From positions 90,001 through 122,000 of the forward strand of contig JBMYVL010000005.1 of the NCBI GenBank assembly GCA_049606355.1: 32,000 nucleotides of DNA, written 5' to 3'. Every line of letters starts with the position of its first letter. The stretch's first letter is position 1. Below are positions 2 through 32,000 of this stretch, in pieces. The stretch is from Opitutales bacterium (GTDB taxonomy: Bacteria > Verrucomicrobiota > Verrucomicrobiia > Opitutales > Coraliomargaritaceae). The notes beneath the pieces are model-generated. The model made no database searches. It was not told where the DNA came from and saw nothing but the letters and a program-made list of their open reading frames with translations. The position numbers and the translations under genes were made by a program.

Positions 2-1672
2 GGCACTTCGCGTTTTCAAGCTACGCTCGATTTGCAGCAACTAAATGGCCACGCGCACACTCAGGGCACAGTCGATCTGCTGCAGTTGCTACCCTCCGGA
101 TTACAACAGCACCTCCCCGATTACCGTTTTGAATCGGCTCCCTATTGTGACTTAAAACTACATTTTGAAAACGGGTTTGCGCTGAGCCGTGCCGAATTTC
201 ATGCGCAGGCCCACAAGCCGCAACTCGCCGGAGTCGCGTTCGATATGCTGCGGACTCGAGGCAGCTATGCGCAGCAGCAATTAGAGCTTAAACAATTCAG
301 TTTCGATCGTGGTCAACAGCACCTTGACCTACACTTGCACTACGATCTTGAAAACCAGGCCTATCAAACGGGGCTGTACGGTAGCATTATCCCCAACGAA
401 TACAATGCACTGATGCCACGCTGGTGGCGGAACCTCTTCAACGATAACTTTCGCTTCACTTCCAACAGTGAAGTCCATGGAGACTTTCGTATTCATGGCG
501 GCAGCTCTCCCTTTCGGACGGATCTCTACTATGGCACGATTCAGGGCAAAGACCTGAGTTACCGAGCGGTACCTATTGATGCAGGCAGCTTAATTGTACG
601 CGGTCGCCGCAGTTATTCAGAGATCCACCAATTGCATGCACGCAGCGGTGAGGGCTTTTTGCGTGGCGATCTACAATTCACGAGTTTTCGCGATGCAATT
701 CGAGCACCGGCTTCGATACGCTATGCCATCAATGCTGAGCTGCCGCTCCAATCCGCACAAAAATTAGTGACCCCTACGATCGCCAAAACTATCGAACGCT
801 TTAGTGCCGAGCAATTGGTTCAGGTCGAATTAAATGGAGCGCAATTCAATGAAGCGCTGTACCCACAATTCGAAGATAAAAGCTTTGTCCACCTCACCGC
901 GAATTCTAAGGGTCCAATACAGTATGCCCGTGTGCCACTTGATTATCTACGCTTCCGCCTCGACGCCGCACGCCGCTTCACTGCGATGCGCGAATTAACG
1001 TTCGGCTTTGCGAATGGAACCGGCACGGGAGCCATCGACATCGACTCCACGGATAAAAGCCAGCCCGCAGAGTTACACCTGCAGCTCTCTTTGAAAGATG
1101 CGGACTACAAGAAATCCCTGCAATCCATGCCAACGTCAGCAGATCTCGAGCGAAGCCTCGAAACCGCGCCCGAATCATCTCCCGACCAAGGACGGGAGGA
1201 CGCACGAGTCGCCGTCGACTTACACGCGAACGGCCCTGCAGATGATTTGTATCAACTGAACGGATACGGATCTTTCATTGTCAATGATGATGCGCTTGGC
1301 TCGATCCAGTTACTCGGCCCATTATCCAAAGTGCTACAAGAAACACCGCTCGGCTTTACGTCGTTTAATTTAAACCGAATGCATGGTGTTTTTTCGATTG
1401 GCGAAGCGCAACTCGACTTTTCCTCGCTCTCCATCGATGGTCCTCAGGCGAAAATTAATGCATCCGGCACCTTGCAACTACGCGACCATGCCCTGGACAT
1501 GCTAGTCGGCGTCGACCTATTTGGTAACATTGTCGGCACTACCAATGGCGTCCAACAGACCATCAAGATGCTGAATCCGCTCAATTACTTACTGCAGTTT
1601 CAACTTACAGGTACACTGCAGCAGCAGCGCTTCCGGTCGCTCTTCGATCCGCGCAATTTTTTACCGTTCTGA
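2..1672 (+). CDS. C-terminal part of a large AsmA/TamB-like envelope protein (5' end outside window)
   Basis: The reading frame is open from nt 2. The TTG at 32 is only the first start-like codon, with no stop upstream. Stop at 1670-1672. The protein is long and beta-rich, with a C-terminus (GTLQLRDHALDMLVGVDLFGN...) reminiscent of AsmA-family C-terminal regions. The family call is by eye only. Confidence 0.5.
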   Translation, partial: GTSRFQATLDLQQLNGHAHTQGTVDLLQLLPSGLQQHLPDYRFESAPYCDLKLHFENGFALSRAEFHAQAHKPQLAGVAFDMLRTRGSYAQQQLELKQFSFDRGQQHLDLHLHYDLENQAYQTGLYGSIIPNEYNALMPRWWRNLFNDNFRFTSNSEVHGDFRIHGGSSPFRTDLYYGTIQGKDLSYRAVPIDAGSLIVRGRRSYSEIHQLHARSGEGFLRGDLQFTSFRDAIRAPASIRYAINAELPLQSAQKLVTPTIAKTIERFSAEQLVQVELNGAQFNEALYPQFEDKSFVHLTANSKGPIQYARVPLDYLRFRLDAARRFTAMRELTFGFANGTGTGAIDIDSTDKSQPAELHLQLSLKDADYKKSLQSMPTSADLERSLETAPESSPDQGREDARVAVDLHANGPADDLYQLNGYGSFIVNDDALGSIQLLGPLSKVLQETPLGFTSFNLNRMHGVFSIGEAQLDFSSLSIDGPQAKINASGTLQLRDHALDMLVGVDLFGNIVGTTNGVQQTIKMLNPLNYLLQFQLTGTLQQQRFRSLFDPRNFLPF

Positions 1673-1676
1673 CGCC

Positions 1677-2273
1677 TTACTGCTTTAACTTCAAAAAGTG
1701 GTCCCACTCACGGTCATAGCTCTGCCCGATTAACGAGCTAATAAAAGGGCGCCAGCGGGGACGCTCTGGCTTACGGATCAAATGCATACTGGCCTGATGT
1801 GGCAGACGGTTGGCCTTCCGAGAATTACATTGTATGCATGAGGTCACGATATTTTCCCACGAGGTACGGCCACCCCGATCACGCGGAATCACGTGATCCA
1901 TGTTGAGCTCTTTGGCCTCGAAGGCGTGTCCACAATATTGGCAGCGGTAGCTATCTCGCTCAAAGAGATTTTCTCGTGTAAACTTAACCTCTTGTGCCGG
2001 CAACTGATCGTATTGGCGTAAGAGCAAGACTTTCGGCACGCGGATTCGCAGACGCACGGTTTGCACATACGCTTCACCATCACTCGGTACACAGGATTCG
2101 CTGTGCGCTAGCCACTGGGCAGAATCCATCATTTGGAAGCTACCATCGAGCGTATTGATAACTTGCGCGTGATCCTGTAGCAGCAGACTGAAGGCACGCG
2201 GGACAGCGACTATGTTCACAGCCTGCCAGAGGCGATTTAGAACCAGTACACGATATTTGAGTCCAGTGCCCAT
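1677..2273 (-). CDS. HNH endonuclease (McrA-like, about 198 aa)
   Basis: ATG at 2271-2273. HNH/zinc motif CQYCGHAFEAKELNMDHVIPRDRGGRTSWENIVTSCIQCNSRKANR. The N-terminal VLVLNRLWQAVNIV... region is typical of the small stand-alone HNH family. Confidence 0.85.
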   Translation of the reverse strand: MGTGLKYRVLVLNRLWQAVNIVAVPRAFSLLLQDHAQVINTLDGSFQMMDSAQWLAHSESCVPSDGEAYVQTVRLRIRVPKVLLLRQYDQLPAQEVKFTRENLFERDSYRCQYCGHAFEAKELNMDHVIPRDRGGRTSWENIVTSCIQCNSRKANRLPHQASMHLIRKPERPRWRPFISSLIGQSYDREWDHFLKLKQ

Positions 2274-8067: not shown

Positions 8068-8571
8068 CTAACTCGCGCCTACTAACAACACTTCAGTGTA
8101 AGGACGCAAAGCGACTTCGGGCAACGCGGCTACCCATGCCTCTAGCAATTGGCCCTGCACCCTAAGCTGTGGCGCGATATCCAGCAAAGGCTGAGCTACA
8201 AAATCACGCTCAACGAGGCGCGGGTGCGGTAGCGTGAGGCGCTCGGTTTGCAGTTCGACGGCATCATAAAGGAGCAGATCCAAATCGATGGTCCGTGGTG
8301 CCAACTCATCGCCTCGCACACGACCCAAACTCGACTCCACGGAAAGACAGGCATCCAATAAAGCCTCCGGCTGCAGGTGGGTGGTCACTTCAACGACCGC
8401 ATTTAAAAAGTCCTCACCCTGCATGCCAATCGCCCGATTTTCATAAATTGGGCTGGCACGTACCACGCACACGCCATGCGCAGTGCGCAAGCGATCGAGT
8501 GCCGCCCGCATCTGCGCGCAGCGATCGCCCAGATTACTTCCCAGCGCAAGATACGCGCGGCTTAGCGGCAT
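8068..8571 (-). CDS. folK: 6-hydroxymethyl-7,8-dihydropterin pyrophosphokinase (HPPK)
   Basis: YLALGSNLGDR start motif, IDLDLLLY and PHPR motifs. ATG at 8569-8571 overlaps the folB stop by 10 nt. Confidence 0.9.
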   Translation of the reverse strand: MPLSRAYLALGSNLGDRCAQMRAALDRLRTAHGVCVVRASPIYENRAIGMQGEDFLNAVVEVTTHLQPEALLDACLSVESSLGRVRGDELAPRTIDLDLLLYDAVELQTERLTLPHPRLVERDFVAQPLLDIAPQLRVQGQLLEAWVAALPEVALRPYTEVLLVGAS

Positions 8572-8927
8572 TGAGTCACCTCCACGGCGAACGAATCGCA
8601 AATACAGGCAACGGGTGCAGAGGGCTTTTTAACCTTCACCGTCACCGCAGCGATCTTCTCAAAGCGTAGCAATAAGTCCGCAGCGATCGCCTCCGCGCAG
8701 CGCTCAATCAACTTGAAACGTGAGCCGGTAAAAATCGCTTCGACCGCGGCATACACCTGCGCGTAATCGACCGTGACCTCTGGAGTGTCCGCTGAAAATT
8801 CAAGCCCGTCCACCAGACGCAGGGAAAGATCGAGCTTAAAGCGCTGGCCAAGCTCCGCTTCGGCTTCGACGACTCCATGGTAGGCATAGAAGGCTAGATC
8901 ATTTAACTCAATGGTTGTCTTATTCAT
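8562..8927 (-). CDS. folB: Dihydroneopterin aldolase
   Basis: LAFYAYHGVVEAEAELGQRFKLDL and DYAQVY motifs. ATG at 8925-8927 overlaps the folP stop by 8 nt. The longer ORF-track form is a 5' shadow extension. Confidence 0.88.
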   Translation of the reverse strand: MNKTTIELNDLAFYAYHGVVEAEAELGQRFKLDLSLRLVDGLEFSADTPEVTVDYAQVYAAVEAIFTGSRFKLIERCAEAIAADLLLRFEKIAAVTVKVKKPSAPVACICDSFAVEVTQCR

Positions 8928-9756
8928 AACGTAAACAGTGGTCCATAACCGCCGCACAGTCAGCATTCTCGCGCACATCGTGGACGCGAATAAAATCCAC
9001 ACCTGCCTGTATCGCGAGTGCCGTGGTTGCCAGTGTGCCACTCAGCCGCTCCTTCGGCTCATCAATCGCCAACAGCTTCGCTAGCATCGATTTTCGAGAT
9101 GCTCCAAGCAGCAAGGGATAACCTAGCGTGCGCAACTCGTCCAGATGCCGCATCATTTGCCAATTCTCTTGGTAGGTTTTCCCAAAGCCCAGACCCGGAT
9201 CCAGCGCGATCGCATCGTCACGCACCCCAGCTGCGCGCACCCGCTCCACTGATGTCCGCAAAAACGTACGCACCGCATCCATCACCGCGCCGCAACCCGC
9301 GGCTTCATGCGGACGGTTGTGCATCAATATACAGGCCGCGCCGTGCGCCGCAATCACCCCAGCCATGTCGGGATCACGCTGCGCCCCCCAGACATCGTTC
9401 ACAATATCTGCACCTGCTCCGAGCGCCGCATCCGCCACTTCGCTCTTCGACGTATCAATCGAAAGCAGCGCATCGGTATGTGGGCGGATCTTCTCGATAA
9501 ACGGAACCACACGGCTTATCTCTTCGGAAGCGGGTACGGGCGCGTAGCCCGGGCGCGTCGATTCCCCGCCGATATCAATCAATGTCGCCCCGGCTTTCAC
9601 CATTTGATGCACGTGCAGCGCCGCCGCATCCGTATCAATAAACTCACCACCATCTGAAAAGGAATCCGGGGTGAGATTTAAGATGCCGACAAGATACGTC
9701 TGCCGGCCCAAGGGCAGCACTCGACGCTTTGTGTAAAATGTGCGCGGCTCTTTCAT
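8920..9756 (-). CDS. folP: Dihydropteroate synthase
   Basis: GILNLTPDSFSDGG, DIGGESTRPG, INDVWG, DPGLGFGK and SRKS motifs. 278 aa. Confidence 0.95.
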   Translation of the reverse strand: MKEPRTFYTKRRVLPLGRQTYLVGILNLTPDSFSDGGEFIDTDAAALHVHQMVKAGATLIDIGGESTRPGYAPVPASEEISRVVPFIEKIRPHTDALLSIDTSKSEVADAALGAGADIVNDVWGAQRDPDMAGVIAAHGAACILMHNRPHEAAGCGAVMDAVRTFLRTSVERVRAAGVRDDAIALDPGLGFGKTYQENWQMMRHLDELRTLGYPLLLGASRKSMLAKLLAIDEPKERLSGTLATTALAIQAGVDFIRVHDVRENADCAAVMDHCLRYE

Positions 9757-10575
9757 TTACCGTAATAAGGAAGCGCTTTCCTCGACGCGTGCAAGCATGC
9801 GGCACAAGTCGGAGACCGATGGATGCGCCCCGCTCGGCGTGTCAAACACGACGCCGTCAACACCCTCGATTGAATCCACCGGTAATAGGCCAAGCGATGC
9901 ATTGGTCATAAAAGCGGCATCGATCTCAGCCAGGACCTCAAGGCCAAAGCAACCTTCCTGTGTCTTGATATTTGCATGGCGCGCCTGCTGCAGCAGGACC
10001 TGGCGAACCACGCCCGGCAGCGCCCCCGTTGCCAACTCCGGAGTGCACAGAATGCCATCGCGAATAAAAAAGAAATTGGCCACCGCAGTCTCTGCCAGAA
10101 CTCCCGCAGTATTCGTACGCAAGACATCATAATAACCGGCACGGCGTGCCGTCTCCAGCAAGTAACGGTTCTCCGCATAGTTATGAGTCTTATGCCCCGC
10201 AAGCGGCGAGCGCTCATTCAACGGGTGGTTCAGCTCCACCTTTACGCGAACCGGACCGGAGGGCGCTGCAAACTTGGGGCGCGCATAGACAAACAACTGC
10301 GTATCGCACAGAGATAACTTAAGTGTGCCGCGCTCGATCCCATCCGTGTGGACCAACTCCCGCAGCGCGGCGAGCACAGCAGCTTCCGAATAGTCACAAC
10401 AGATACCGAGCGCACGGGCCGATGCGCACAAGCGCGCCCAGTGTGCCTCCCAATGCAAGAGGCGCCCTGCATCGAAACGCAGCGTTTCAAAGAGCCCATA
10501 GCCATGCGCGAAACTAGACGCGGTGGGCAGTAACTCGGCCTTGTCGCCGGAGGGGAGGATTACGATTTCAGACAT
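9757..10575 (-). CDS. pabC: Aminodeoxychorismate lyase (class IV aminotransferase fold)
   Basis: Class-IV aminotransferase features (GLFETLR, GHKTHNY lysine context). Located between pabB and folP with a 16-nt overlap and direct abutment. The pabC assignment, as opposed to ilvE or dat, rests on this context. Confidence 0.7.
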   Translation of the reverse strand: MSEIVILPSGDKAELLPTASSFAHGYGLFETLRFDAGRLLHWEAHWARLCASARALGICCDYSEAAVLAALRELVHTDGIERGTLKLSLCDTQLFVYARPKFAAPSGPVRVKVELNHPLNERSPLAGHKTHNYAENRYLLETARRAGYYDVLRTNTAGVLAETAVANFFFIRDGILCTPELATGALPGVVRQVLLQQARHANIKTQEGCFGLEVLAEIDAAFMTNASLGLLPVDSIEGVDGVVFDTPSGAHPSVSDLCRMLARVEESASLLR

Positions 10576-11915
10576 AAGGCATCGATAGTTTCACGGATTG
10601 CACGTCCCTTATCCAATGTTTCTTGATACTCACTTGCGGGATCCGAATCCCAAACGATACCGCCACCGACCTGATAGTCCAGTTGGCCATCCTTCACATG
10701 CAAGCTACGGATCGCTATATTGAACTCCGCATCCCCATTAAATCCAATGTAGCCGACTGACCCGCAATACAGGCCACGTCGTGTCGGCTCCAACCGCTCG
10801 ATGATCTGCATTGCGCTCACCTTGGGCGCACCGGTAATCGAACCTCCGGGGAAGGTCGCACGGATGCAATCAAACACATCCTTGCCGTCTGCCAAGCTTG
10901 CCTTCACTTGAGCAGTCTGGTGCATGACGCGCGCGTAGTGCTCCAAGTGATACAATTGCTCGACCTGCACCGAGCCAAATTCAGCGACCCGTCCAAGATC
11001 ATTGCGCTCCAGATCCACAATCATTAAAAGTTCCGCGCGTTCTTTTTCTGACTGCTGTAAGGCCTGCGCATTGCGCTGATCCGCTTGCGGGTCTCCCACA
11101 CGCGGACGGGTGCCTTTGATTGGGCGGGTCACCAGCGACTGCCCACGCTTACGCAAAAACTGCTCCGGTGAAGTGGACAGGACCTGTAGTTCGCCCGTGT
11201 CGAGGTAGGCGCTAAACGGCGCGGGGTTACCCTGCCGCAATGCGGCATACAACTGCAGCGGGTCGCCGCAAAACGCACTACGGGCGCGCTGGGAAAGATT
11301 CACTTGGTAGACCTCGCCACGGGCAATCGACTCCTTCACTTGCTCGATGGCTTTAATAAATTCACTACGCGTAAAATTCCACTGCCAGTCGCCACAGCTC
11401 GGCTTCGCGGGCGACTCGCTTGCTGCGCCTTGCTCAAGAAGAGTCCGCAATTCTTCCAAGACGACCGCAGCATCGGCGCGTATGCCGAGAGCGACTAAAT
11501 ACAGGACCCCGCTGCGATGGTTCAGCGCTGCGATTCCATCATACAAACCAAAATGTAGGTCCGGTATGGCGCGGTCATCGATTGCCTGCGCCTGAATCCG
11601 CTCAATCTGCCGACCGTAATCATAGGCCAAAAATCCAACGGCACCGCCCACAAACGGAATCTCGGTAGTGGCAGTATTGGCATACGGGGCCATCCGCTCG
11701 CGTAAGAGCGCCAAGCCATCTGCGCGTGAACCATGATCCACGTACTCGCCATCCTTACCGCTTAGCACCTCAAACGGATCCGCGCCAAAAAAACTCCATT
11801 CGCCCAAGCCATCATTCGATAATGTACTGTCCAAAACAAACGGATGCCGGCGACGTCCAAAACATGCCACGAGGGTCTCCACCGATGGCGGGTTCTGTAT
11901 TTCCAAGACCTGCAT
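10560..11915 (-). CDS. pabB: Aminodeoxychorismate synthase component I
   Basis: Chorismate-binding family motifs: SPEQFLR, IKGTRPR, LERNDLGRV, FPGGSITGAPK, RGLYCGSVGY. ATG at 11913-11915; the 11966 start is a TTG shadow. No pabA is adjacent. Confidence 0.85.
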   Translation of the reverse strand: MQVLEIQNPPSVETLVACFGRRRHPFVLDSTLSNDGLGEWSFFGADPFEVLSGKDGEYVDHGSRADGLALLRERMAPYANTATTEIPFVGGAVGFLAYDYGRQIERIQAQAIDDRAIPDLHFGLYDGIAALNHRSGVLYLVALGIRADAAVVLEELRTLLEQGAASESPAKPSCGDWQWNFTRSEFIKAIEQVKESIARGEVYQVNLSQRARSAFCGDPLQLYAALRQGNPAPFSAYLDTGELQVLSTSPEQFLRKRGQSLVTRPIKGTRPRVGDPQADQRNAQALQQSEKERAELLMIVDLERNDLGRVAEFGSVQVEQLYHLEHYARVMHQTAQVKASLADGKDVFDCIRATFPGGSITGAPKVSAMQIIERLEPTRRGLYCGSVGYIGFNGDAEFNIAIRSLHVKDGQLDYQVGGGIVWDSDPASEYQETLDKGRAIRETIDALCLKS

Positions 11916-11928
11916 TGCTACCGCTGAC

Positions 11929-13068
11929 TCAGTGCTGATTGGCGCGTTGCAACAAATACAAGCCAATCGCTTGGAAAAGGATATTCGGCAGCCAGATCAA
12001 CAAATCCGGACGCAACGTGACACTTCGCTCTAACCAGCTCACCGCAATGAGTAGAAAGTAAAAACTCATCGCGACGACCAAGGCGATTCCCAGGTTCGCA
12101 TAACTTTCTTTGCGCCCAACTTTCACGGCAAGCGGCACCCCGAAGATCGTCAGAGAGATGACTGAAAATGCGAGGGCGAAATTTTTCTGGAGATGAAACT
12201 GCGCCTGCAGTCGTTCCGTCGAGAGGCCCGCACCTGCTTCGGCTTCCAGTGCACTTTCTCGGAGGTCCAGCAACTGCGAAAATGTCATGTATTTGACTTT
12301 GACGCGCTCCGCGCTCGGCCGCCCGAAGACTTCATCCAGAGACCACTCAAATGGCAGCTCACCAAAGTCCAGCATATCCAAACTCATCCCACCAAACTGT
12401 TCCGGCGCATCCGGATCACGTTTTTCGGTCGTACCATCCAGCAAAGTTAGCACCAGTGTATTGTCGTCTTCGCGAAAGTCGACGCGCCCTTCACGCCCGC
12501 GGATAAAGAGCTCCACTCGCTTTTGCGCATCTAATTTCCAAAACCACACATCCTCCAACCGCTTGCCCTCGCGACTGCCGGTATAAATCACCGCACCGGG
12601 GAACTCATTGATGAAGCGGCGTGCCTCAATAAAGCTCACGGGGTTTTCACTTACCGCCGTCGCCATCAATTGCTTGTATGCCGTTCGAGACTTCGGCGCA
12701 TAGTGCAGGTTCACCATGATGCCGGCAACCACGCCCAGGCTCGCAATCAAAAAAACAGGCGCCGCTATTTGATAGAGCCCCAGACCTGCCGACTTCATCG
12801 CCGTGATCTCATTTTGCGCGGAGAGTCGGCCGAGTGCCATCAACGTTCCGGTCAACATCCCCAGCGGCAGTGCATAAGCGGCGACGTAAGGAATCAGCAG
12901 CGCAATCAATTTGATGAGTAGCAGCCACTCGAGTTGGCCGGCTACGACGAGCTCCACAATATCCTTTAGCGCATTGCCCATGAGGAGAACAAAAATAAAC
13001 AGCCCCATCGCGAGTAGGGTTGAAACGAGAATTTCCCGAAGGATATGGCGATGGAGTAATGTGAGCAT
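11929..13068 (-). CDS. LptF/LptG-family (YjgP/YjgQ) permease
   Basis: 379 aa. The N-terminal HRHILREIL... motif, six hydrophobic segments and a central periplasmic beta-jellyroll-size insert are typical of LPS export permeases. Confidence 0.8.
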   Translation of the reverse strand: MLTLLHRHILREILVSTLLAMGLFIFVLLMGNALKDIVELVVAGQLEWLLLIKLIALLIPYVAAYALPLGMLTGTLMALGRLSAQNEITAMKSAGLGLYQIAAPVFLIASLGVVAGIMVNLHYAPKSRTAYKQLMATAVSENPVSFIEARRFINEFPGAVIYTGSREGKRLEDVWFWKLDAQKRVELFIRGREGRVDFREDDNTLVLTLLDGTTEKRDPDAPEQFGGMSLDMLDFGELPFEWSLDEVFGRPSAERVKVKYMTFSQLLDLRESALEAEAGAGLSTERLQAQFHLQKNFALAFSVISLTIFGVPLAVKVGRKESYANLGIALVVAMSFYFLLIAVSWLERSVTLRPDLLIWLPNILFQAIGLYLLQRANQH

Positions 13069-16881: not shown

Positions 16882-17579
16882 AAGCATTACTGAGCATTCA
16901 TGACTGCATGCCGGAAACTTTGGAGCGCGTGCTTACACTGATCGAATGGCTCCAGTCGCTCGGCGTGCCTCCCCTTACCTTGTTGGTCGTGCCCGGGAAA
17001 AACTGGACAGCGAGGCAACTCGAACAACTGCACCGTTGGGTCGAGCAGGGCCACACCCTCGCTGCTCACGGCTGGGACCACCAGACCCAGCCGCGCCGGG
17101 CTTATCATCGTCTGCACGCCTACCTACTTTCCCGTAATGTCGCAGAGCACCTCGATCTGAACTCCACGGAAATCCTAAATCTCCTCTGTCGCGCCAAAGC
17201 GTGGTTTTCTCAGCACGCCCTCCCCGAACCCGAATTATACGTACCGCCCGCTTGGGCGCTCGGCACACTGCACCGCAACGATTTGGCAAAAGCCCCCTAT
17301 TGCCAGATCGAAACAACTCGTGGTCTGTATCAGATCCACAACCAGCGCATCCAGCGGCAATCCTTGCCGCTGGTCGGTTACGAAGCCGATACCACACTCC
17401 GCGCAGCCTTCCTGCGTCGCTGGAACCAGGCACAAGCAGGTCGTGCGCAGCGCCGCCAGCTGCCGCTACGTATTTCGATTCATCCGGACGACTTACAACT
17501 CCGTCTTGCCGACCAAATGCAAGCGCAGCTCTGCGCCGTCACAGAATTCCTTCATTATCGCGATGTATCTCCTAACTGA
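16878..17579 (+). CDS. DUF2334 / polysaccharide-deacetylase-like protein
   Basis: ATGA start/stop overlap with the GT4 gene (16878-16881). LLSIHDCMP... and LAAHGWDH motifs resemble the DUF2334 deacetylase-fold family. Confidence 0.6.
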   Translation: MKALLSIHDCMPETLERVLTLIEWLQSLGVPPLTLLVVPGKNWTARQLEQLHRWVEQGHTLAAHGWDHQTQPRRAYHRLHAYLLSRNVAEHLDLNSTEILNLLCRAKAWFSQHALPEPELYVPPAWALGTLHRNDLAKAPYCQIETTRGLYQIHNQRIQRQSLPLVGYEADTTLRAAFLRRWNQAQAGRAQRRQLPLRISIHPDDLQLRLADQMQAQLCAVTEFLHYRDVSPN

Positions 17580-18090
17580 GGGCGAAACCGAACGGTTGTA
17601 TTTTCAGGCGTTCATCGCACAGTACGGCTGCCACGATGTCGCAGTCGCTCGGGGCCGCAGTTCAGATCCACTGCGTCTCGTTAGCGAGGCCATTCAAGCA
17701 CGTTTGCCGAATCCAGACACCTGGGTCGTGCTCGATGCTGAACTCCACGACAGTGATCCCACGCGCCAACGACGCTTCCACAAAGCGCTGCGACAAGCCG
17801 CGCGCTATGACATTCGCATGGCCATCGCAGAACCCTGCTTTGAGGCGTGGCTACTCAGCCACCTAGACCTCCACAAGGATTATCGATTCAAGCAAACGAG
17901 CGCTTACTTCAGCACTCTACTCGAACAAAAGACCGGGCTTGTGTATCAAAAAAGTCACTACGCAGCGGATTATTTTGTGCGCGCGGATCGCTTAGCGATC
18001 GCGCGACAATCCCCCGTCGGCCGGCGTGGACTGTCACACTTAATTGAGTGTTTATTGAATCGCGCTGATTCCTTCACTCAGCGTCCCTGA
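17563..18090 (+). CDS. RloB-like (Toprim-fold) protein, orphan
   Basis: N-terminal LLTEGETERLYF (compare RloB EGEKTEPNYF), TWVVLDAE (compare VWVVFDRD) and AEPCFEAWLLSHL (compare SNPCFELWLLLHF). ATG at 17563 overlaps the DUF2334 gene by 17 nt. The 3' end overlaps convergent yjbQ by 13 nt. Confidence 0.7.
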   Translation: MYLLTEGETERLYFQAFIAQYGCHDVAVARGRSSDPLRLVSEAIQARLPNPDTWVVLDAELHDSDPTRQRRFHKALRQAARYDIRMAIAEPCFEAWLLSHLDLHKDYRFKQTSAYFSTLLEQKTGLVYQKSHYAADYFVRADRLAIARQSPVGRRGLSHLIECLLNRADSFTQRP

Positions 18091-24371: not shown

Positions 24372-25796
24372 ATGGATATCGGATATCGTAAAACAAAGAT
24401 TATTTTCACCGTCGGTCCTGCGACGATGGAGGAAGCGGTGCTGGAGCGCCTGATTGAAACGGGCGTAGACATCTGCCGCATTAACATGGCACATGCGGAT
24501 CATGAGTGGACCCGTGAAATTATCCGCCGGGTGCGGCGCGTGGGTGAAAAGTGTGGTCGTCAGATTGCCATTCTAATGGATGTTAAAGGTCCGGAAATTC
24601 GCACGGGCGACGTTCCTGAAACCTACGCACTTGAAGTCGGCGAACGCCTCGACTTCACCTACGGGAGCGGGATCGGCAGTACCGGCGCGGATGGTGTGCG
24701 CCGCGTCGACGTCAACTACCCGGGACTCATGCAAGATATCAAGGTCGGCGACACCGTGCTGGTCGACAGTGGCTTGATTCGCCTCAAAGTGCTCGAAATT
24801 GAAGACGCCCGCGTGCGTACCGAAGTGATCATCCCGGGGCCACTGGGTAATCGCCGCCATATTAACCTGCCCGGCGTGCGCGTGAATTTGCCGGCGCTGA
24901 CCGAGAAAGACCAAGCCGATGTGGATGTCGGCATCGAAGCTGAGATTGACTTCTTTGCACTGTCCTTTGTGCGCGAACCGAACGATCTCGACATCTTCCA
25001 TCAGTACCTTGAGGAACGCGGCTCCAGCGCGAAAATCATTGCCAAAATTGAAGACCAGCAAGCGATCAGCAACCTGGAAGGCATTATTAAAGCTTCGGAT
25101 GGCCTAATGGTTGCGCGAGGCGATCTGGGTATCGAGTGCCCCTTTGAGGATCTGCCGCTCATTCAGAGTCGGGCAGTCCGAATGTGTATCCAAAACACCA
25201 AGCCGGTGATCGTGGCCACACACATGCTCGAATCGATGATTGAGTCGCCGATTCCCACACGTGCGGAGGTCACCGATATCGCCAATGCGATCCGTGAACA
25301 AGCAGACTGCGTGATGCTTTCCGGCGAAACCACCGTGGGCAAATATCCGGTCGAATGCGTTGAAGCGATCAATCGCATCGCTCATCGTACTGAGCGGGAG
25401 CAGAAGGAGGTCTTGCGTCAGGATCTGCAGCTCAATCTGCCTCGCTCGATGATGTTGCGCGCGGCCGCACAACTTGCCGCCAACATGCAAGCCACTGCCA
25501 TCTTGGTCTTTACGCGGCGCGGCATTTTCTCGCAAAAGCTGTCCTCGCTGCGTCCGCTGGTTCCTATTTACGCGTTCACAGACAATCCGGTACTGTTTCG
25601 CCAAATGCTTATCATGCGCGGCATCGAACCCTTCTACATGAAATTTGATCATGACCACGAGGCAACCATTCAAGACGCCTTTGCGCGACTGAAGGAGCGC
25701 AAATGGACCAAGCCGGGCGACCCGATCGTGGTGGTCACCAAGCTGTACGCGGGTGAAAAGTTGATCGACAGCACGCAGATTCGTGAGATAGATTGA
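24372..25796 (+). CDS. pyk: Pyruvate kinase
   Basis: [53 protein letters not shown] and ATHMLESM motifs. 474 aa from ATG 24372. Confidence 0.95.
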
Positions 25797-25820
25797 TTTT
25801 ACTATTTTATTACATCCCCT

Positions 25821-26348
25821 ATGCAAAAATTTAGAGCCCTCCTCCTCCCCCTCGCAATTGTGTTTGGTGCCATCGCTGTCTTTGAGACGGGTGCGCGCTA
25901 CGGCATGACAAACATGCGTGCGTACGCCATCGCCGAGCAGCTCCACAGCCTCACGCAAATTCGCATCACGATTCAAAACGAGGAGCAGGGCACCGCGCAA
26001 TTACCCGTGGTCCCGATCGCGCAAATTGATAATCTGATCGCATCCGGTTCCATGCTTCGCGAGATCTGGCACCTTGAGAAAAATGCCAAGCAAGTCTTGG
26101 AGAATACTCTGAGCTTTGTGATGCGCGCACGCGGCGCTGAAAATATCATCCAACGATTTGAAGCCGCGCGCGATAGCGAGGGCACGACTGCAGCAAACCA
26201 AACACAGTTTAATGAGATCATTGCCGCGATTCAATTAGCTCGCACGGAGCTGATCGACAACGCACCGACACCGGTCGCGAGTGAAACGGATGGCGTATTG
26301 GCGGATGAACCGGCTGCAGAAACATCCGCTGCGAGCGCTGCGGAATAA
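25821..26348 (+). CDS. Hypothetical N-terminally anchored or secreted protein with acidic Ala/Glu-rich tail
   Basis: ATG 24 nt after the pyk stop. Hydrophobic N-terminus LLLPLAIVFGAIAVF. No recognisable motif. Confidence 0.5.
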   Translation: MQKFRALLLPLAIVFGAIAVFETGARYGMTNMRAYAIAEQLHSLTQIRITIQNEEQGTAQLPVVPIAQIDNLIASGSMLREIWHLEKNAKQVLENTLSFVMRARGAENIIQRFEAARDSEGTTAANQTQFNEIIAAIQLARTELIDNAPTPVASETDGVLADEPAAETSAASAAE

Positions 26349-26354
26349 GGTCAC

Positions 26355-27548
26355 TCAACCGGAGCGGGTAGGCCTGGAGGCGCTACGAAGCCCCTGCCAC
26401 AAGAGTCCGCTCAAAGCCATCCACACGATGGCCTGAAAGGAGCTGAGCCAACCAAACAGGCTCAAGCCGACACCTGTAGCTGCAGTCATCAAGCCGCAGG
26501 CGAGCACCGCTTGCGAAGGTCGGCTTTGAGCGGCGCGCGCCAAGGGGTACAAGGCTCCGGCAAAGCATGCGGCAAGAATCGATTCTAGCCCACGACTGAC
26601 CGGCGAATCGAGATGAAGCACGATTCCCAGCGGCAGGCCGCAGAGCACAGCGCGCAGGTAGTACTGCAACCAACGCTGGACCTGCTGCGGCTCAAGCCCG
26701 CGAGCAGAGGGGGACGCTTCGCCCAGTGAGGCACGACTCTGGCACCAACGACCGAAGAGTAACACCGTGAGCAGTGCGGACAAGGGCCACAAGCCCGCTC
26801 CTTCGGCATCGGCGTGAAAGAACGCACGCAACTGCCACCCCGTTAAAAGCACGATACCCAAGGCCACCAATAAATCATAATGCAGGAGACGCGCTTGCAG
26901 GGAGCGCCATGCGGGCACGATAAAATGGCTGCCGCCGACCAGTAGACTCAAGATCGCGAAACAGAGCTCCAGCAGTCGGAACAAGCCGTGCAAAGAAGGG
27001 TCGAGCGAGGTGGTGAACTGTGGTGTGGACAGCAGCAGACCGTTTAGCGCGAATATACCACACAACACCCAGCGCCAAGTTAGGGGCGACCAACGCGCCG
27101 TCACCCCCTCGCGAAACGGCGCCGCGCTGTAGCCGAACGACCGCAATTCCGCGAGGAAGGCGGCTAAATCGAACGCCCGCGGTTGCCACTGCATCCATAG
27201 GCTGCGCCCTTCAAGACTCACGCGTGCCTGCTCTGCCCCCTGCTGTCGTTTAAACAGGTGCTCCACCAGCCACGCGCAGCCCAAGCAACTCAAGCCATCC
27301 AAGCGGAGTTGGCAGCGGCACCCCTGAGCTTCGCTGGTAGCCTGCAACGCTGCAGCCCAGGCGAAGGCAGCGCGATCGACTGCAGCCGCATCGACTGGAC
27401 GGCCGGCCTCATCTCGCATCGCGTAAAAGGTCTCAAGGCCTGCCTCGCGAATGCGCTCATAAACCTGCGCGCAGCCTGCACAACAAAACTCAGCTTTCTT
27501 AGCGGTTGCGGCAAAGGTCGTACCGCAATGTTTGCAGATCTGTTTCAT
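26355..27548 (-). CDS. Membrane protein with a CcoI/FixI-type Cys-rich metal-binding N-terminus, an HMA-like domain and about 8 TM helices; lacks P-type ATPase catalytic domains
   Basis: CKHCG-x14-CCAGC (ATPase-cat_bd-like). LRLDGLSCLGCAWLVE (HMA-like CxxC). HFIVPAWRSL...YDLLVALG and LLFGRWCQSRA resemble the MB/M1/M2 helices of P1B ATPases. No DKTGT, TGE or GDGxND motifs. ATG at 27546-27548; GTG at 27590 is an alternative start. Confidence 0.65.
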   Translation of the reverse strand: MKQICKHCGTTFAATAKKAEFCCAGCAQVYERIREAGLETFYAMRDEAGRPVDAAAVDRAAFAWAAALQATSEAQGCRCQLRLDGLSCLGCAWLVEHLFKRQQGAEQARVSLEGRSLWMQWQPRAFDLAAFLAELRSFGYSAAPFREGVTARWSPLTWRWVLCGIFALNGLLLSTPQFTTSLDPSLHGLFRLLELCFAILSLLVGGSHFIVPAWRSLQARLLHYDLLVALGIVLLTGWQLRAFFHADAEGAGLWPLSALLTVLLFGRWCQSRASLGEASPSARGLEPQQVQRWLQYYLRAVLCGLPLGIVLHLDSPVSRGLESILAACFAGALYPLARAAQSRPSQAVLACGLMTAATGVGLSLFGWLSSFQAIVWMALSGLLWQGLRSASRPTRSG

Positions 27549-27595
27549 TGTCTCGCCGGTCCTCGCGCTTGCCGAAGCAAGCCCATCCACTCCGC

Positions 27596-30500
27596 TTACG
27601 ATGCATCAAAGCGCTCGATGCCCTTACGTACATCGGCGAGAAACGCAGCCGCACCGACGCCATTCACCCAGCGATGATCAAAGGTGAGCACGAGCGACAC
27701 GACTTCCATCGTCCCTCCATCCGAGGACTTCGGATCCGGTAAGGTGAAAGGCGCACCAATAAAGAGCGTCGCGACCGATGGCGGCACGACCACTGGGATC
27801 GCCGAGCGCACATGGTAAGCGCCCATACTGGAAATCGACACTGCCACGCGATTTTTGGAGGCCACTTCGCCCTGCCGGGTTGCGCGCAAGGCGGCGTTGA
27901 AAGCCTCTGGAAACTGTGCCCAGTCGAGGGTGTTGGCTTCTTTAACCACGGCCGTCTCCAAAACATCCCCCGGCAAAGCCACCGCCACGCCAAGGTCAAT
28001 CCGCTCAGGATCATGCATCAACTCACCGCCGCGGATAAACGAGGCAAAGCGCTCGTGTTTTTGCATCGCCTGAAGCACCGCCCATGCAGTCATCGTCGCA
28101 GTCGACAGGGTGCCGCCGCCGGCCTCCTTACTGCGCAGGCGCGCATCCCGCACGGCCTCCCAACGGCAGGTCATATCAATCGTCGCCGGAACGATGCCCT
28201 CCAATTGGCGAATGGCTTCCATCGAAAGCCCCGCGGACTTCTTCAAACTGGCATAATCCTGCGGGGCCGTTGTCACCGCAGGGGCTGCGGTGGCGGACTG
28301 CGTGGCAACCGAGCGGCTGACTTTTAAGATCGCGAGCTCCTGCCCGACTTTGACTTCGTCCGCTTCGGCAATTTTCCACTCCTGCAACACACCATCTGTA
28401 TCACATTCGATCGGGAAGACCGCTTTATCGGTCTCCACTTCACAGAGCGCATCATCCGCCTGGATAGGATCCCCGACTTGCTTGAGCACGGAAACAACCC
28501 GCGCCACGCGGATCCCCTCCCCTAAAATCGGCACCGTAATGACTTTTTCGCTCTCTTCCATCATTGCTTGCTCCATCGCTATCGTAGTATCAGGTGCGCC
28601 GCCCGCAGTCGGGTGTGTAACTGCTTCGACATCCAGTTTGAGTGAAGCCTGCAATGTCGAAGCGAGCAAGCGCTCGATTGCGGCCAGGATTCGTTCCTTA
28701 TCAGGTAAAGCCGCATATTCGTAAATTGGGTTGAAGCCGACATGCACATCCGCCTTCGAGACAATCACTGGTGGGCTCTTCAGGGCTTCCAGCAGGGCAC
28801 GTTCACTGCATAAGTCTGCGACAATCATCTGGCCGACGCTGGCGCTGATGTTATCTTCCTGAACGATCAGCAAACGCCCGGTCTTTTGCACGGATTCAAG
28901 CAGTGCCGCCCGATCCCACGGCGCAATCGAGCGCAGATCGATACACTCCACCGAGAGCTGAGTATCCATGCCAGCCAAGGTCTCTTCGACCAATTCCACG
29001 CAGTTCCCCCAAGTCACCAGCGTCAACAAATCCCCCTCACGCACGCGACGTGCCTTGCCGAGCGGGATCGCCTCTACCGGAGCGACCGTCGCTTGCTCGG
29101 CCCACATTAAATGCTTGGGCAGGAGAATAATCGTTGGGTCTCCACCCTGCAGGGCTGTCCAAAAAAGGCCTGCGGCATCATTGGGCGTCGACGGCACGAC
29201 GACACGGATACCGGGAATGCGCGCGAACGAAGCTTCGCCCGCCTGACTGTGCCACAGCGCACCGCCGGGCAGGTAACCGCCACAGGGCGCATAAATAACC
29301 AGTGGGCATTGCCAATTGCCAAAACTGCGCCAGCGCAGGGTCGCCATATTCGAAACAAGTTGATTCCAGCCGGGGTATATAAAATCGACAAACTGTATTT
29401 CGAAACAGGGACGTTTGCCATAGGACGCCAGCCCCACGGCCACACCCATGATGGTCGATTCCGCCAAGGGCGAATTAACCGCGCGCGACGGATCTTTCGT
29501 CGACAGCCCTTTGGTTAAATTAAACACGCCACCTTTCGGATCCGCAATATCTTCACCAAAAAAGACCACGTCGGGCAGGGTATCCATCGCGCTATGGAAC
29601 GTGCGGTTGACTGCATCCAACATCCGGCAGGAGGGCTCCAGCTCAACCGTTGGCGGAGTCGGATTGACCGGTTCGCCGACGAGGTGCAAGGTACTCTCAC
29701 TGGCGAGTGGATCGGTCGCACCGCTGGCAATTCGGTAGGCCTCGCGGACTGCTTCGCGTGTACTCGCTTCGAGCTCGGCAGCCGCCGCCTCGGTGAGCAC
29801 GCCTTCATCAATCAAGCGCTGCTGGTACAGTACGATCGGATCGCGCGCGTGCATCGCTTCCAGTTCATCGGCGGCGCGATACATGCGCTGATCATCGGCG
29901 CTCGAATGATTGGAAAAACGCTCCACATCACACCAGATAAAGGCGGGGCCCTGCCCCGCTCGTGCGCGTGCCACCGCCTCCCGGCCGGCAGCTGCCACCG
30001 CTTCGACGTCGCTACCATCCACGCGCAACCACTCACGTTGATCGAGCACGCCCAAGGCCAAGGGATTGGTCCGCTGCGTCGATGTACTGATCGCGATACG
30101 GTTGTCCTCGACGACAAAGACCACCGGCAGGCAGCGCTCTTTGGCAAAACACACCGCTTCAAAAAAATCACCCTGGCGCGCAGACGCTTCGCCCAAGGAA
30201 GCGTACACTACGTTCGACTTCCCATCGAGCTGCATCCCCCAAGCTGCCCCACAGGCAGGTAGAAGATGCACCCCGACCGGAGAGGGATGACTCCAAATAT
30301 TGAGCGCGCGATCACTGAAGTGGCCGGTCAATTGGCGGCCGCCACTGGAGGCCTCGCGCTTTGCATAAAAAGCCAAGGCCAGATCATGATCACTGAGGCC
30401 CCGCTGCAGGCAAAACGCACGATCGCGGTAATAGGGAAAGGCATAATCGTCCGGCTCCAGCTCCAGCGCAATCGCTGCCAAGGCCTCATGCCCCATGCCG

Positions 30501-30643
30501 GAGATATGGAACCAACCCTTCCCCTGCCGAATGAGACTTTGTTCGCGTAAATCACCCAGCCGGCTGCGCCAGAGTGTGTGGAGCAACGCCACGCGTTTGT
30601 CTGAGCCGAGCTGCACCGTCGCAGTTGAGTCGTTGTGTGCCAT
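27596..30643 (-). CDS. Fused 2-oxoacid dehydrogenase: E1-alpha, E1-beta, lipoyl domain and E2 acyltransferase core in one 1015-aa polypeptide
   Basis: Residues about 15-320 are E1-alpha (TPP motif [13 protein letters not shown]...[10 protein letters not shown], and FSNHSSADD). Residues about 338-662 are E1-beta ([53 protein letters not shown]). Residues about 700-775 are the lipoyl domain ([13 protein letters not shown], Lys740 codon at 28424-28426). Residues about 800-1015 are the E2 core ([18 protein letters not shown]). The ORF is uninterrupted, with ATG at 30641-30643. Confidence 0.85.
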
Positions 30644-30688
30644 TAGGATGAAATTGAGCAGCTGCAGAATCCGAAGCTGCGCGGTCTA

Positions 30689-30716
30689 TAAATACTCGCG
30701 CTGAATTCCCAAGCAA
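30689..30716 (-). promoter_or_regulatory. Candidate promoter for the fused dehydrogenase operon
   Basis: On the minus strand: TTGCTT (30716-30711), a 16-nt spacer, then TATTTA (30694-30689), about 45 nt upstream of the ATG and just downstream of the opcA terminator. Motif match only. Confidence 0.3.
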
Positions 30717-30733
30717 GGACGAAACCCGTACGG

Positions 30734-30769
30734 AAAATGTAAAAGCTAGGCGACGCAAGCGGCGCCTAG
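30734..30769 (-). terminator. Rho-independent terminator of the zwf-opcA unit
   Basis: Hairpin CTAGGCG.CG...CG.CGCCTAG (30746-30769, overlapping the opcA TAG stop), followed on the minus strand by CTTTTACATTTT. Confidence 0.6.
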
Positions 30770-31746
30770 AAAAACAGGGCTTCCGCCAAGGCTTGCTCCG
30801 CTGCCAGGGCTTTCACGTGTGTGGGCACGTGCTCCACATGTTGGCCAAAGTTGGCATCGATAACGCCACGAGAGGCTTCCGCCAACTTACGCCACTTGAA
30901 AAAGCGCTCGTCCACATAGGCAAACTCCAGACTCAACAGGCAGTCGCTGGCTGCATCGTCGCACGGCAGAATCTCTGTCGCGATCGCAGCAGTCTGGTCT
31001 GCTGGTGCGCACTCCCGCAGGCAATCGAGGGCCCAGTCCATTAAGCGCTGCGCCTCGCCGCGCATGCTCGGACAATGGCGAATGGTGATTCCCTGGAGCC
31101 CGGCATACAGTTGCTCACTGGAATAACCGCTCAAAAACTGGCCAATTGATTGGCGCACCGGCAACAGGCGCGCCTTGGCAAGGTCATGCACGCGTCCCGG
31201 TTCAGGCCAGTCGAGTTGCTCCAAGGCGGCGGACTCTAAACTGCTGTCGTAGACGCAGCGCCGCACGCCCACCAAGAGATTGTTGAAATACTTCTCGATA
31301 CGGTGCGCGGGGACTTCGCTGAACCAATGGTAGGTCGGCAAGTCGCCCTCCAGCCAGACCGATACCTGATTGGAGAGATAGCCGAAATCCTCGGGCTTAT
31401 AGCGGAGCAACAGTGCTTCACAGCAGCACATTTCCCGATGCGAATCACCAATGTAACACTGGCTAAAAAGCTTCGCGGTCATCGACCCATCCTCGATCGC
31501 ATGGCTGGGGCATAGCACGATAATGCGACTCGGGTAGCGCTGGGCAAAGCGAATGAGCGCATCAAAGCGCGCCCGCGCCGCCTCGGGAGCCACCTCTGCA
31601 CCAAAATGCAGGACCACGTTCATTTGCGAGGCGCGAAACTCGGTGGGCGCATCGGTGGTATCGGTCGCCCACATCGCCGCCAGACGCTCGGTCACCTCAC
31701 GCACAGGGAGTTCAATCCCCGGCAGCACATCGATCAGTTCAGACAT
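30766..31746 (-). CDS. opcA: Glucose-6-phosphate dehydrogenase assembly protein OpcA-like
   Basis: Starts 24 nt downstream of the zwf stop on the same strand. Motifs resemble actinobacterial and cyanobacterial OpcA: ASQMNVVLH, YPSRIIVL, EGDLPTYHWF. The call rests on context plus motifs. Confidence 0.6.
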   Translation of the reverse strand: MSELIDVLPGIELPVREVTERLAAMWATDTTDAPTEFRASQMNVVLHFGAEVAPEAARARFDALIRFAQRYPSRIIVLCPSHAIEDGSMTAKLFSQCYIGDSHREMCCCEALLLRYKPEDFGYLSNQVSVWLEGDLPTYHWFSEVPAHRIEKYFNNLLVGVRRCVYDSSLESAALEQLDWPEPGRVHDLAKARLLPVRQSIGQFLSGYSSEQLYAGLQGITIRHCPSMRGEAQRLMDWALDCLRECAPADQTAAIATEILPCDDAASDCLLSLEFAYVDERFFKWRKLAEASRGVIDANFGQHVEHVPTHVKALAAEQALAEALFF

Positions 31747-31770
31747 GTTCCGTAGTTCAGCGCGTCAGTT

Positions 31771-32000
31771 TCAGCCGGAGCGGCGCCATTGGTGGCCACC
31801 CTCCTCGAGTAATTGCTCACTTGCCTCGGGCCCCCAGGAGCCGGCGGCATATTCTTCGAGCCCCTCGGCACCACTGGCGGCCCAGTAATCAAGGATCGGC
31901 GTGATCAATTTCCAGGAGGCCTCCGTCTCATCGCCGCGAATGAATAAAGTACTATCGCCGACCATTGCGTCCAGAATCAGACGCTCGTAAGCCTCCGGTG
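31771..32000 (-). CDS. zwf: Glucose-6-phosphate 1-dehydrogenase, C-terminal end (5' part outside window)
   Basis: The frame is open to the window edge. ...PEAYERLILDAMVGDSTLFIRGDETEASWKLITPILDYW...YAAGSWGPEAS is the conserved G6PD C-terminus. Confidence 0.9.
   Translation of the reverse strand, partial: PEAYERLILDAMVGDSTLFIRGDETEASWKLITPILDYWAASGAEGLEEYAAGSWGPEASEQLLEEGGHQWRRSG

Follow-up and report, generated by a model that had tools for sequence, protein, structure and literature searches.

Classical 2-oxoacid dehydrogenase complexes with an α2β2 E1 keep E1α, E1β and the acyltransferase E2 on separate chains, and both E1 and the dihydrolipoamide dehydrogenase (E3) dock on a peripheral subunit-binding domain (PSBD) of E2. 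This three-subunit design was long treated as universal, and the actinobacterial exceptions to it have drawn considerable structural attention. In this report, we examine a gene in a 32,000-nucleotide stretch of DNA from an Opitutales bacterium (contig JBMYVL010000005.1, positions 90,001 to 122,000; the whole stretch is called “the window” below). The gene, at 27596..30643 of the window on the reverse strand, encodes E1α, E1β, a lipoyl domain and an E2 core in one chain of 1015 residues. We predict that this fusion is probably a working single-chain 2-oxoacid dehydrogenase, and we found that joining E1 to E2 goes along with loss of the PSBD. With the classical α2β2-E1 complexes, such as the pyruvate dehydrogenase (PDH) of G. 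stearothermophilus (1w85) and the branched-chain 2-oxoacid dehydrogenases (BCKDH) of T. thermophilus and humans (1um9 and 1dtw), the fusion shares the catalytic residues and the lipoyl motif; its E1β is 34-39% identical to theirs, with template-modelling (TM) scores of about 0.95.

To our knowledge, OdhA is the only E1-E2 fusion for which a structure has been solved. Like the gene product described here, the OdhA/KGD proteins (the “two-in-one” 2-oxoglutarate dehydrogenases) place E1 and E2 catalytic domains on one polypeptide. They differ from it in that their E1 is of the homodimeric E1o class, their E2 part lies N-terminal to E1, and they have no lipoyl domain, borrowing that of E2p; the fusion has an α/β-type E1, the order E1-lipoyl-E2, and a lipoyl domain of its own. 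OdhA is a homohexamer in which three E1 dimers bridge two E2 trimers (PDB 8p5t, and 2xt6 for OdhA/KGD; PMC10415282). A second partial precedent is QncL of the quinocarcin pathway (Peng et al. 2012, as described in PMC6335953), which combines Transket_pyr, Transketolase_C, lipoyl and E2 acyltransferase domains. As far as that description goes, QncL resembles the fusion in that a lipoyl domain links E1β to E2 within one chain. The Qnc system, again compared by description, departs from it in having a separate E1α-like protein (QncN), an acceptor acyl carrier protein (ACP; QncM), a nonribosomal peptide synthetase (NRPS) cluster and a ketose-phosphate donor, whereas the fusion holds E1α in the same chain and has no ACP, NRPS or polyketide synthase (PKS) cluster near it in the window or at the 78 loci surveyed below. 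A sequence-only reading of this DNA had proposed that the E1α-E1β-lipoyl-E2 architecture may be undescribed. The proposal stands in that the searchable open-access literature yielded no description of such a chain; it does not stand for the databases, which hold hundreds of entries under generic names, and QncL and OdhA are partial precedents. The architecture is uncharacterised rather than unknown.

The open reading frame (ORF) runs without interruption for 1015 codons plus a stop, as the sequence-only reading had it. The five Pfam domains predicted there were all found, each with a wide margin over its threshold: E1_dh at residues 31-309 (4e-56; 190.6 bits against a cut-off of 22), Transket_pyr at 341-512 (4e-31; 108.3 bits, cut-off 27), Transketolase_C at 529-652 (3e-19; 69.6 bits, cut-off 25.9), Biotin_lipoyl at 701-773 (7e-16; 58 bits) and 2-oxoacid_dh at 821-1012 (1e-24; 87.5 bits); E3_binding was absent, also as predicted. 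The product thus passes all three Pfam domain cut-offs for a heterotetramer-type (α/β) 2-oxoacid dehydrogenase E1, and it has two features of a dihydrolipoamide acyltransferase (E2), a lipoyl domain with a DKA-type lysine and a core like chloramphenicol acetyltransferase (CAT) with the Ser and the DHR His. The modules follow one another along the reverse strand, to which all coordinates in this and the next paragraph refer. The E1α module (residues 9-320; 29684..30619) includes the loop that binds thiamine diphosphate (ThDP) and Mg, G151-E152-A153...E179-D180-N181 (30101..30193), a variant in which the usual GDG is GEA. Of the E1α signatures named in the sequence-only reading, both this loop and H246SSADD are present, although the spacing within the loop is x26 and not x27. 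E395 and H465SQ, the claimed E1β signatures, lie in the E1β module (residues 335-664; 28652..29641), which is delimited by the Transket_pyr and Transketolase_C matches and by matches in the PDB. After a linker (residues 665-696; 28556..28651) comes the lipoyl domain (residues 697-777; 28313..28555), whose ETDKA lysine had been placed correctly at 28424-28426 and is K740. The Ala/Thr/Pro-rich second linker (residues 778-812; 28208..28312) occupies the site of the PSBD in relatives and contains none here. It leads, as had been noted, into the acyltransferase core (residues 813-1015; 27599..28207), which carries I937-S938-S939 and the motif D989-H990-R-W-V-N994-G (27659-27679).

An AlphaFold2 model of the fusion, built from an alignment of 68 sequences, has a mean predicted local distance difference test (pLDDT) score of 87.8 and resolves three confident modules, 9-664 (above 90 in E1α), 697-777 and 813-1015. 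The segments 665-696 and 778-812 both fall below 50. Sequence conservation draws the same boundaries: over 120 close clusters the mean column conservation is 0.86-0.89 in E1α, E1β, the lipoyl domain and the E2 core (0.86 for E1α and 0.88 for the core), and 0.31-0.35, with indels, in the two linkers (0.31 in the first, and 0.35 over residues 778-800 of the second). Invariant in these clusters are G151-E152-A153, D180-N181, H246SSADD, E395, H465SQ, ETDK740A and S938, which include every element of our motif test for an α/β E1 (the G151-E-A...D180-N181 variant, E395, H246 and H465). The E2 motif reads D989-H990-R-W-(I/V)-N994-G throughout, with Asp, His, Arg and Asn constant. In Foldseek searches, the E1β module was nearest to T. 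thermophilus BCKDH E1β (1um9_B; 39% identity, TM 0.95) and human BCKDH (35%), followed by PDH E1β of G. stearothermophilus (34%) and of humans (28%). The E2 core aligns to solved E2 cores, with OdhA/KGD a weak match.

The fusion is widespread in Opitutales from marine metagenomes. The survey of the architecture's distribution that the sequence-only reading had suggested returned more than 120 clusters at 74-80% identity, all full length (about 1010 residues) and all with the five domains, and 78 loci in species-level genomes, nearly all Opitutales. Named sources of the clusters are Coraliomargarita, Lentimonas, Puniceicoccaceae and Opitutales; their database labels are only “thiamine pyrophosphate-dependent enzyme” or “2-oxoisovalerate dehydrogenase E1 component”. 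The 78 loci come from a tblastn scan of genome contigs with one genome per species, in which most matches were one segment covering residues 1-1013, and they include isolates and the closed chromosome of a metagenome-assembled genome (MAG). The identical protein (100%) occurs in an independent assembly, and the scan also found additional, more distant fusion copies at 45-51% identity. Three contigs with an Opitutales-type fusion (L018, L032 and L069; 72-78% identity) sit in MAGs labelled Yoonia, Polaribacter and Zhongshania, most likely through binning contamination.

The closest relatives of the E1 part that lack the fusion suggest what may have been joined. E1αβ fusions as such are common in databases, and the closest E1αβ-only proteins (at L079, L085 and L087) are 657-673 residues long and up to 50% identical to the fusion. 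At each of these loci, a separate lipoyl-E2 gene of about 390-430 codons begins 3-97 bp downstream. These split relatives are stand-alone two-gene operons, and the lipoyl-E2 family to which they belong has more than 1600 detected members, from Planctomycetota wherever a source is named (for example, Pirellulaceae GCA_019636375.1). The split E2 is 39% identical to the fusion in the lipoyl domain and 30% in the core, with an extra segment between the two. Like the fusion, the two-gene system (an E1αβ of about 660 residues plus lipoyl-PSBD-E2) has one lipoyl domain, the DHRxxNG motif, a C-terminus of the form ...IExF(S/E)L and no linked lpd, the gene for E3; motif and tail occur in all 114 full-length split E2s examined. 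It differs in having two genes, and in an E2 that keeps a divergent PSBD of 40 residues.

The assignment of that 40-residue element rests on several observations. It is conserved in the split E2s as IPPKTRKYLKE.NLLD.AD.IP..G.KLMP.DVDAYLA, and Pfam E3_binding misses it. When its profile was compared with the PDB, seven of the 11 matches were PSBDs, aligned end to end at marginal E-values (0.05-0.9). All of the top 15 Foldseek matches in the PDB to an AlphaFold model of the element (pLDDT 85) were PSBDs, with TM scores of 0.60-0.76 and a root-mean-square deviation down to 1.2 Å. The element is thus probably a divergent PSBD; because Pfam E3_binding overlooks it, the split E2s (P0282-P0401, e.g. 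L085:8001-9218) are recorded as lacking such a domain.

The fusion itself has no comparable element. Pfam E3_binding had no match in the whole protein even at E<=1, and the isolated linkers had no Pfam match at E<=10. Profiles of the split relatives' element, made from three and from 20 sequences and run with --max, matched none of 128 E2-type fusions (best E-value 91), and the element was present in 119 of 120 split E2s. Hence, fusion and PSBD loss go together. A cryptic PSBD in the fusion was considered and rejected on the Pfam searches of protein and linkers, the predicted disorder of 778-812 and the relatives' profiles. The same evidence bears out the earlier claim that nothing resembling a PSBD lies between lipoyl domain and core, and the comparison of split with fused forms supports the accompanying proposal that tethering E1 makes the PSBD dispensable. 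The distance from the lipoyl lysine to the DHR motif is 327 residues in split and 249 in fused forms.

These lengths also bear on whether the long ORF could be spurious, with neighbouring E1αβ and E2 genes joined through an error of assembly or sequencing. Split two-gene versions do occur in other lineages, and the gene is broken into two ORFs at one of the 78 loci (L076). Against this, more than 120 independent clusters and 78 genomes share the same in-frame junctions, and the fusions are consistently about 78 residues, the PSBD stretch, shorter than the split genes; since that stretch is missing, an overlooked stop codon cannot be the source of the fused ORF. We therefore rejected frameshift or misassembly, on the recurrence of full-length homologues and the missing stretch, and regard such an origin as exceedingly improbable.

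From these features, we propose the following scheme. The E1αβ part would decarboxylate a 2-oxoacid with ThDP and reductively acylate K740 of its own lipoyl domain. The lipoyl domain would then swing on the two flexible linkers, each of about 32-35 residues, and reach the E2 core at the C-terminus; there, the acyl group would be passed by His990 and Ser938 to coenzyme A (CoA), the presumed acceptor. The reduced lipoyl arm would be re-oxidised by an E3 encoded elsewhere, acting in trans and without a docking domain. As to origin, the gene probably arose when a two-gene operon encoding E1αβ and lipoyl-PSBD-E2 became fused end to end in Opitutales (Verrucomicrobiota). The two-gene form survives in other lineages (Planctomycetota wherever the organism is named), and the PSBD of the fusion would have been deleted because E1 no longer needed docking.

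E1 active sites form in dimers and E2 active sites in trimers. A closed assembly with both kinds of axis, 2-fold and 3-fold, is expected of a protein in which E1 dimerises and E2 trimerises; the smallest would be a hexamer such as OdhA. The analogy is qualified by the fact that the E1 and E2 modules of the fusion are joined only via flexible linkers and the lipoyl domain. The fuller picture, a “three-in-one” dehydrogenase closed through 2-fold (E1) and 3-fold (E2) contacts, in which E1, lipoyl domain and E2 occur at a fixed ratio of 1:1:1 and which is served by an E3 without a docking site, is one that we consider plausible but would rate slightly short of probable.

A number of observations weigh against the reading of the gene as a working single-chain dehydrogenase. 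The Mg-binding GDG is replaced by GEA in the fusion clade, and more distant relatives have GDA or GDG. The C-terminus reads ...IERFDAS (family consensus ...IERFDLV), compared with ...DIRAILL in A. vinelandii E2p, and is two residues shorter and without the Leu-Leu. One fused relative, P0128, retains a PSBD-like element. Some relatives would pass the acyl group to ACP, ketosynthase (KS) or ketoacyl-ACP synthase III (KAS-III) modules, as against the CoA presumed here. All NCBIfam equivalog cut-offs are missed, and the E1 is about equally distant from BCKDH and from Gram-positive PDH E1. Finally, no lpd was found by tblastn and an active-site motif scan within 8-10 kb of 88 fused or split loci (1.54 Mb).

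The tail has consequences for assembly. With its C-terminus two residues shorter and lacking the terminal Leu-Leu, a 24- or 60-mer core is uncertain; in actinobacterial E2p, small changes in the tail can abolish higher-order cores. The A. vinelandii E2p core (1eaa) is like the fusion in being a natural DHRxxNG variant, and unlike it in being free-standing, in having a PSBD and a C-terminal ...AILL knob, and in forming a 24-mer.

The state of the E2 module is a related matter. It could be a non-catalytic scaffold or relic, with only E1 and the lipoyl arm active and delivering the acyl group to an independent E2 complex of the canonical kind, the opposite arrangement to that of OdhA, where lipoyl domains are borrowed from E2p. 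The Pfam match to the core begins only at profile position 35, Asn replaces the Asp of DHRxxDG, and the C-terminus is shortened, all of which would fit a relic. However, Ser938, His990 and Arg991 do not vary, and conservation of the core (0.88) is on a par with that of E1 (0.86-0.89). The AlphaFold2 core is complete at pLDDT 80-94, including an N-terminal helix at 808-815. The Asn, which the sequence-only reading had singled out as unusual, turns out to be natural: wild-type A. vinelandii E2p, an active enzyme, reads DHRVING (PDB 1eaa), and 1dpc is its N-to-D mutant. Further, E. coli E2o with the equivalent Asp replaced (D379A) retains 9.5% activity (PMC5986005). We thus rejected inactivation of E2 through the Asp-to-Asn change, and a relic E2 appears very unlikely to us.

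A different role altogether would be to load starter units for lipid or polyketide synthesis, with the E2-like domain passing the acyl group from the lipoyl arm to an ACP, as in QncN/QncL/QncM; even a ketose phosphate is conceivable as the donor. A search of 1.84 billion representative proteins showed the E1αβ-lipoyl unit to be modular, being followed by an E2 core (the fusion and about nine 50%-identity clusters), by E2 plus ACP (P0128), or by KAS-III/FabH (dozens of clusters, among them P0147 and P0158), and at one PKS cluster (L080) the family ends in E2-ACP-ketosynthase. The characterised QncL, with its E1β-lipoyl-E2 order, is described as loading an ACP (PMC6335953). Yet no ACP, KS, PKS or NRPS gene lies beside the fusion in the window or at the 78 loci, and its neighbours have housekeeping functions (pyruvate kinase, folE2 and sdhCAB): pyruvate kinase is two genes away in 23 loci, and sdhCAB adjoins two distant copies. 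Nearly universal in the order, the gene keeps 74-80% identity from genus to genus; core enzymes typically behave in this way and biosynthetic clusters do not. The nearest split relatives stand alone as two-gene operons. The housekeeping context and the lack of ACP, KS, PKS or NRPS genes nearby favour a core catabolic PDH or BCKDH over a QncL-like loading enzyme, which we hold to be unlikely, if less so than a relic E2.

For the catabolic enzyme that we favour, pyruvate and a branched-chain 2-oxoacid are about equally plausible substrates. The best NCBIfam matches were PDH E1β (192 bits, cut-off 454) and PDH E1α (191 bits, cut-off 411), with various E2 models also matching, and a sequence search of the PDB gave the same mixture of BCKDH and PDH as Foldseek; because this ranking is mixed, the substrate class cannot be read from homology. 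The neighbouring genes did not separate the two classes either. A neighbour-joining tree of the E1 region, on which we do not rely (it used a crude distance and motif-based labels, several of them wrong), interleaved E2-type fusions with E1αβ-only forms.

The supply of E3 is a further question for this enzyme. As the sequence-only reading had stated, the window contains no lpd gene. The Lpd query was checked against the PDB, where it matched solved E3s from bacteria to humans. Split relatives also lack a linked lpd, so the missing neighbour is not peculiar to the fusion, and E3 is likewise unlinked in the ancestral two-gene form. With no lpd within 8-10 kb of the sampled loci, we infer that E3 acts in trans. 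That E3 can work untethered is known from E. coli, where a free lipoyl domain supports turnover by E1o, the E2o core and E3 (PMC5986005).

The main value of the fusion lies in its pairing with the split form, a natural set of PSBD-less and PSBD-bearing versions of one enzyme. This pairing makes it testable whether the PSBD serves to hold E1 or to recruit E3, how much tethering contributes to active-site coupling, and how a dimerising and a trimerising enzyme joined by a swinging arm assemble. If the “three-in-one” picture is correct, the pair amounts to a natural experiment indicating that the PSBD in this lineage exists to hold E1 and that stable binding of E3 is dispensable for a working complex. 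In addition, the fusion may be the pyruvate or branched-chain oxoacid dehydrogenase of Opitutales, and under its current generic or E1-only annotation, metabolic reconstructions would miss the E2 function.

The wider family includes other chains of note. A large group of proteins of about 1100-1160 residues has the architecture E1α-E1β-lipoyl-KAS-III (FabH), represented by P0147, P0158, P0274 and dozens of 50%-identity clusters, and by L083:8001-11429; one member stands by itself among housekeeping genes on a contig of 312 kb. To judge from their domains, these proteins would use the lipoyl arm to start fatty-acid or polyketide synthesis straight from a 2-oxoacid, and we found no description of the architecture in the literature searched. 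The PKS-type cluster at L080:6001-14034 encodes an E1αβ of 677 residues, then an 873-residue protein with lipoyl, PSBD-like, E2 core (DHCVMNG), ACP and ketosynthase parts; next come a DH-like gene and another that exceeds 2251 codons. P0128 is a single chain, E1αβ-lipoyl-PSBD-like-E2-ACP. By their domain content, L080 and P0128 look like loading modules derived from oxoacid dehydrogenases and akin to QncN/L/M.

Around the fusion in the window, a scan of 25700-32000 for promoters and terminators returned sites no more numerous than in shuffled sequence. Immediately downstream, at 26355-27590 (-), a gene for a 411-residue membrane protein begins 5 nt beyond the stop codon of the fusion, or 47 nt beyond it if translation really starts at the ATG at 27548. 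This protein has a Cys-rich N-terminal domain of the CcoI/FixI type (PF12156), an HMA-like CxxC domain, several transmembrane helices and no ATPase domains, and looks like the front end of a P1B-ATPase. The Cys-rich membrane gene directly follows the fusion in about 39 of 76 Opitutales loci, often with a LysE/RhtB-like protein of about 205 residues after it; it was not found beside the distant fusions or the split operons. Given that absence and the lack of a mechanistic connection, we rejected a functional link with the fusion and take the arrangement as lineage synteny. On the other side, the same strand carries a gene for a 326-residue OpcA-like protein (glucose-6-phosphate dehydrogenase assembly domain, 5e-11) at 30766-31746, 122 bp upstream of the fusion. 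Its adjacency to the fusion is kept in a subset of loci, and no zwf is visible before the end of the window.

Farther from the fusion, an ORF of 546 codons at 32-1672 (+) has no Pfam match at E<=1e-4. Two other ORFs may be left over from defence or mobile elements: one at 1677-2273 (-) encodes an HNH endonuclease and stands alone, and the other, at 17320-18090 (+), is RloB-like (1e-18) and overlaps the final part of a DUF2334/polysaccharide-deacetylase ORF. A cluster of folate-pathway Pfam domains at 8068-11966 (-), comprising HPPK, a pterin-binding enzyme, a class-IV aminotransferase and a chorismate-binding enzyme and followed by an LptF/LptG permease ORF, is ordinary chromosomal context.

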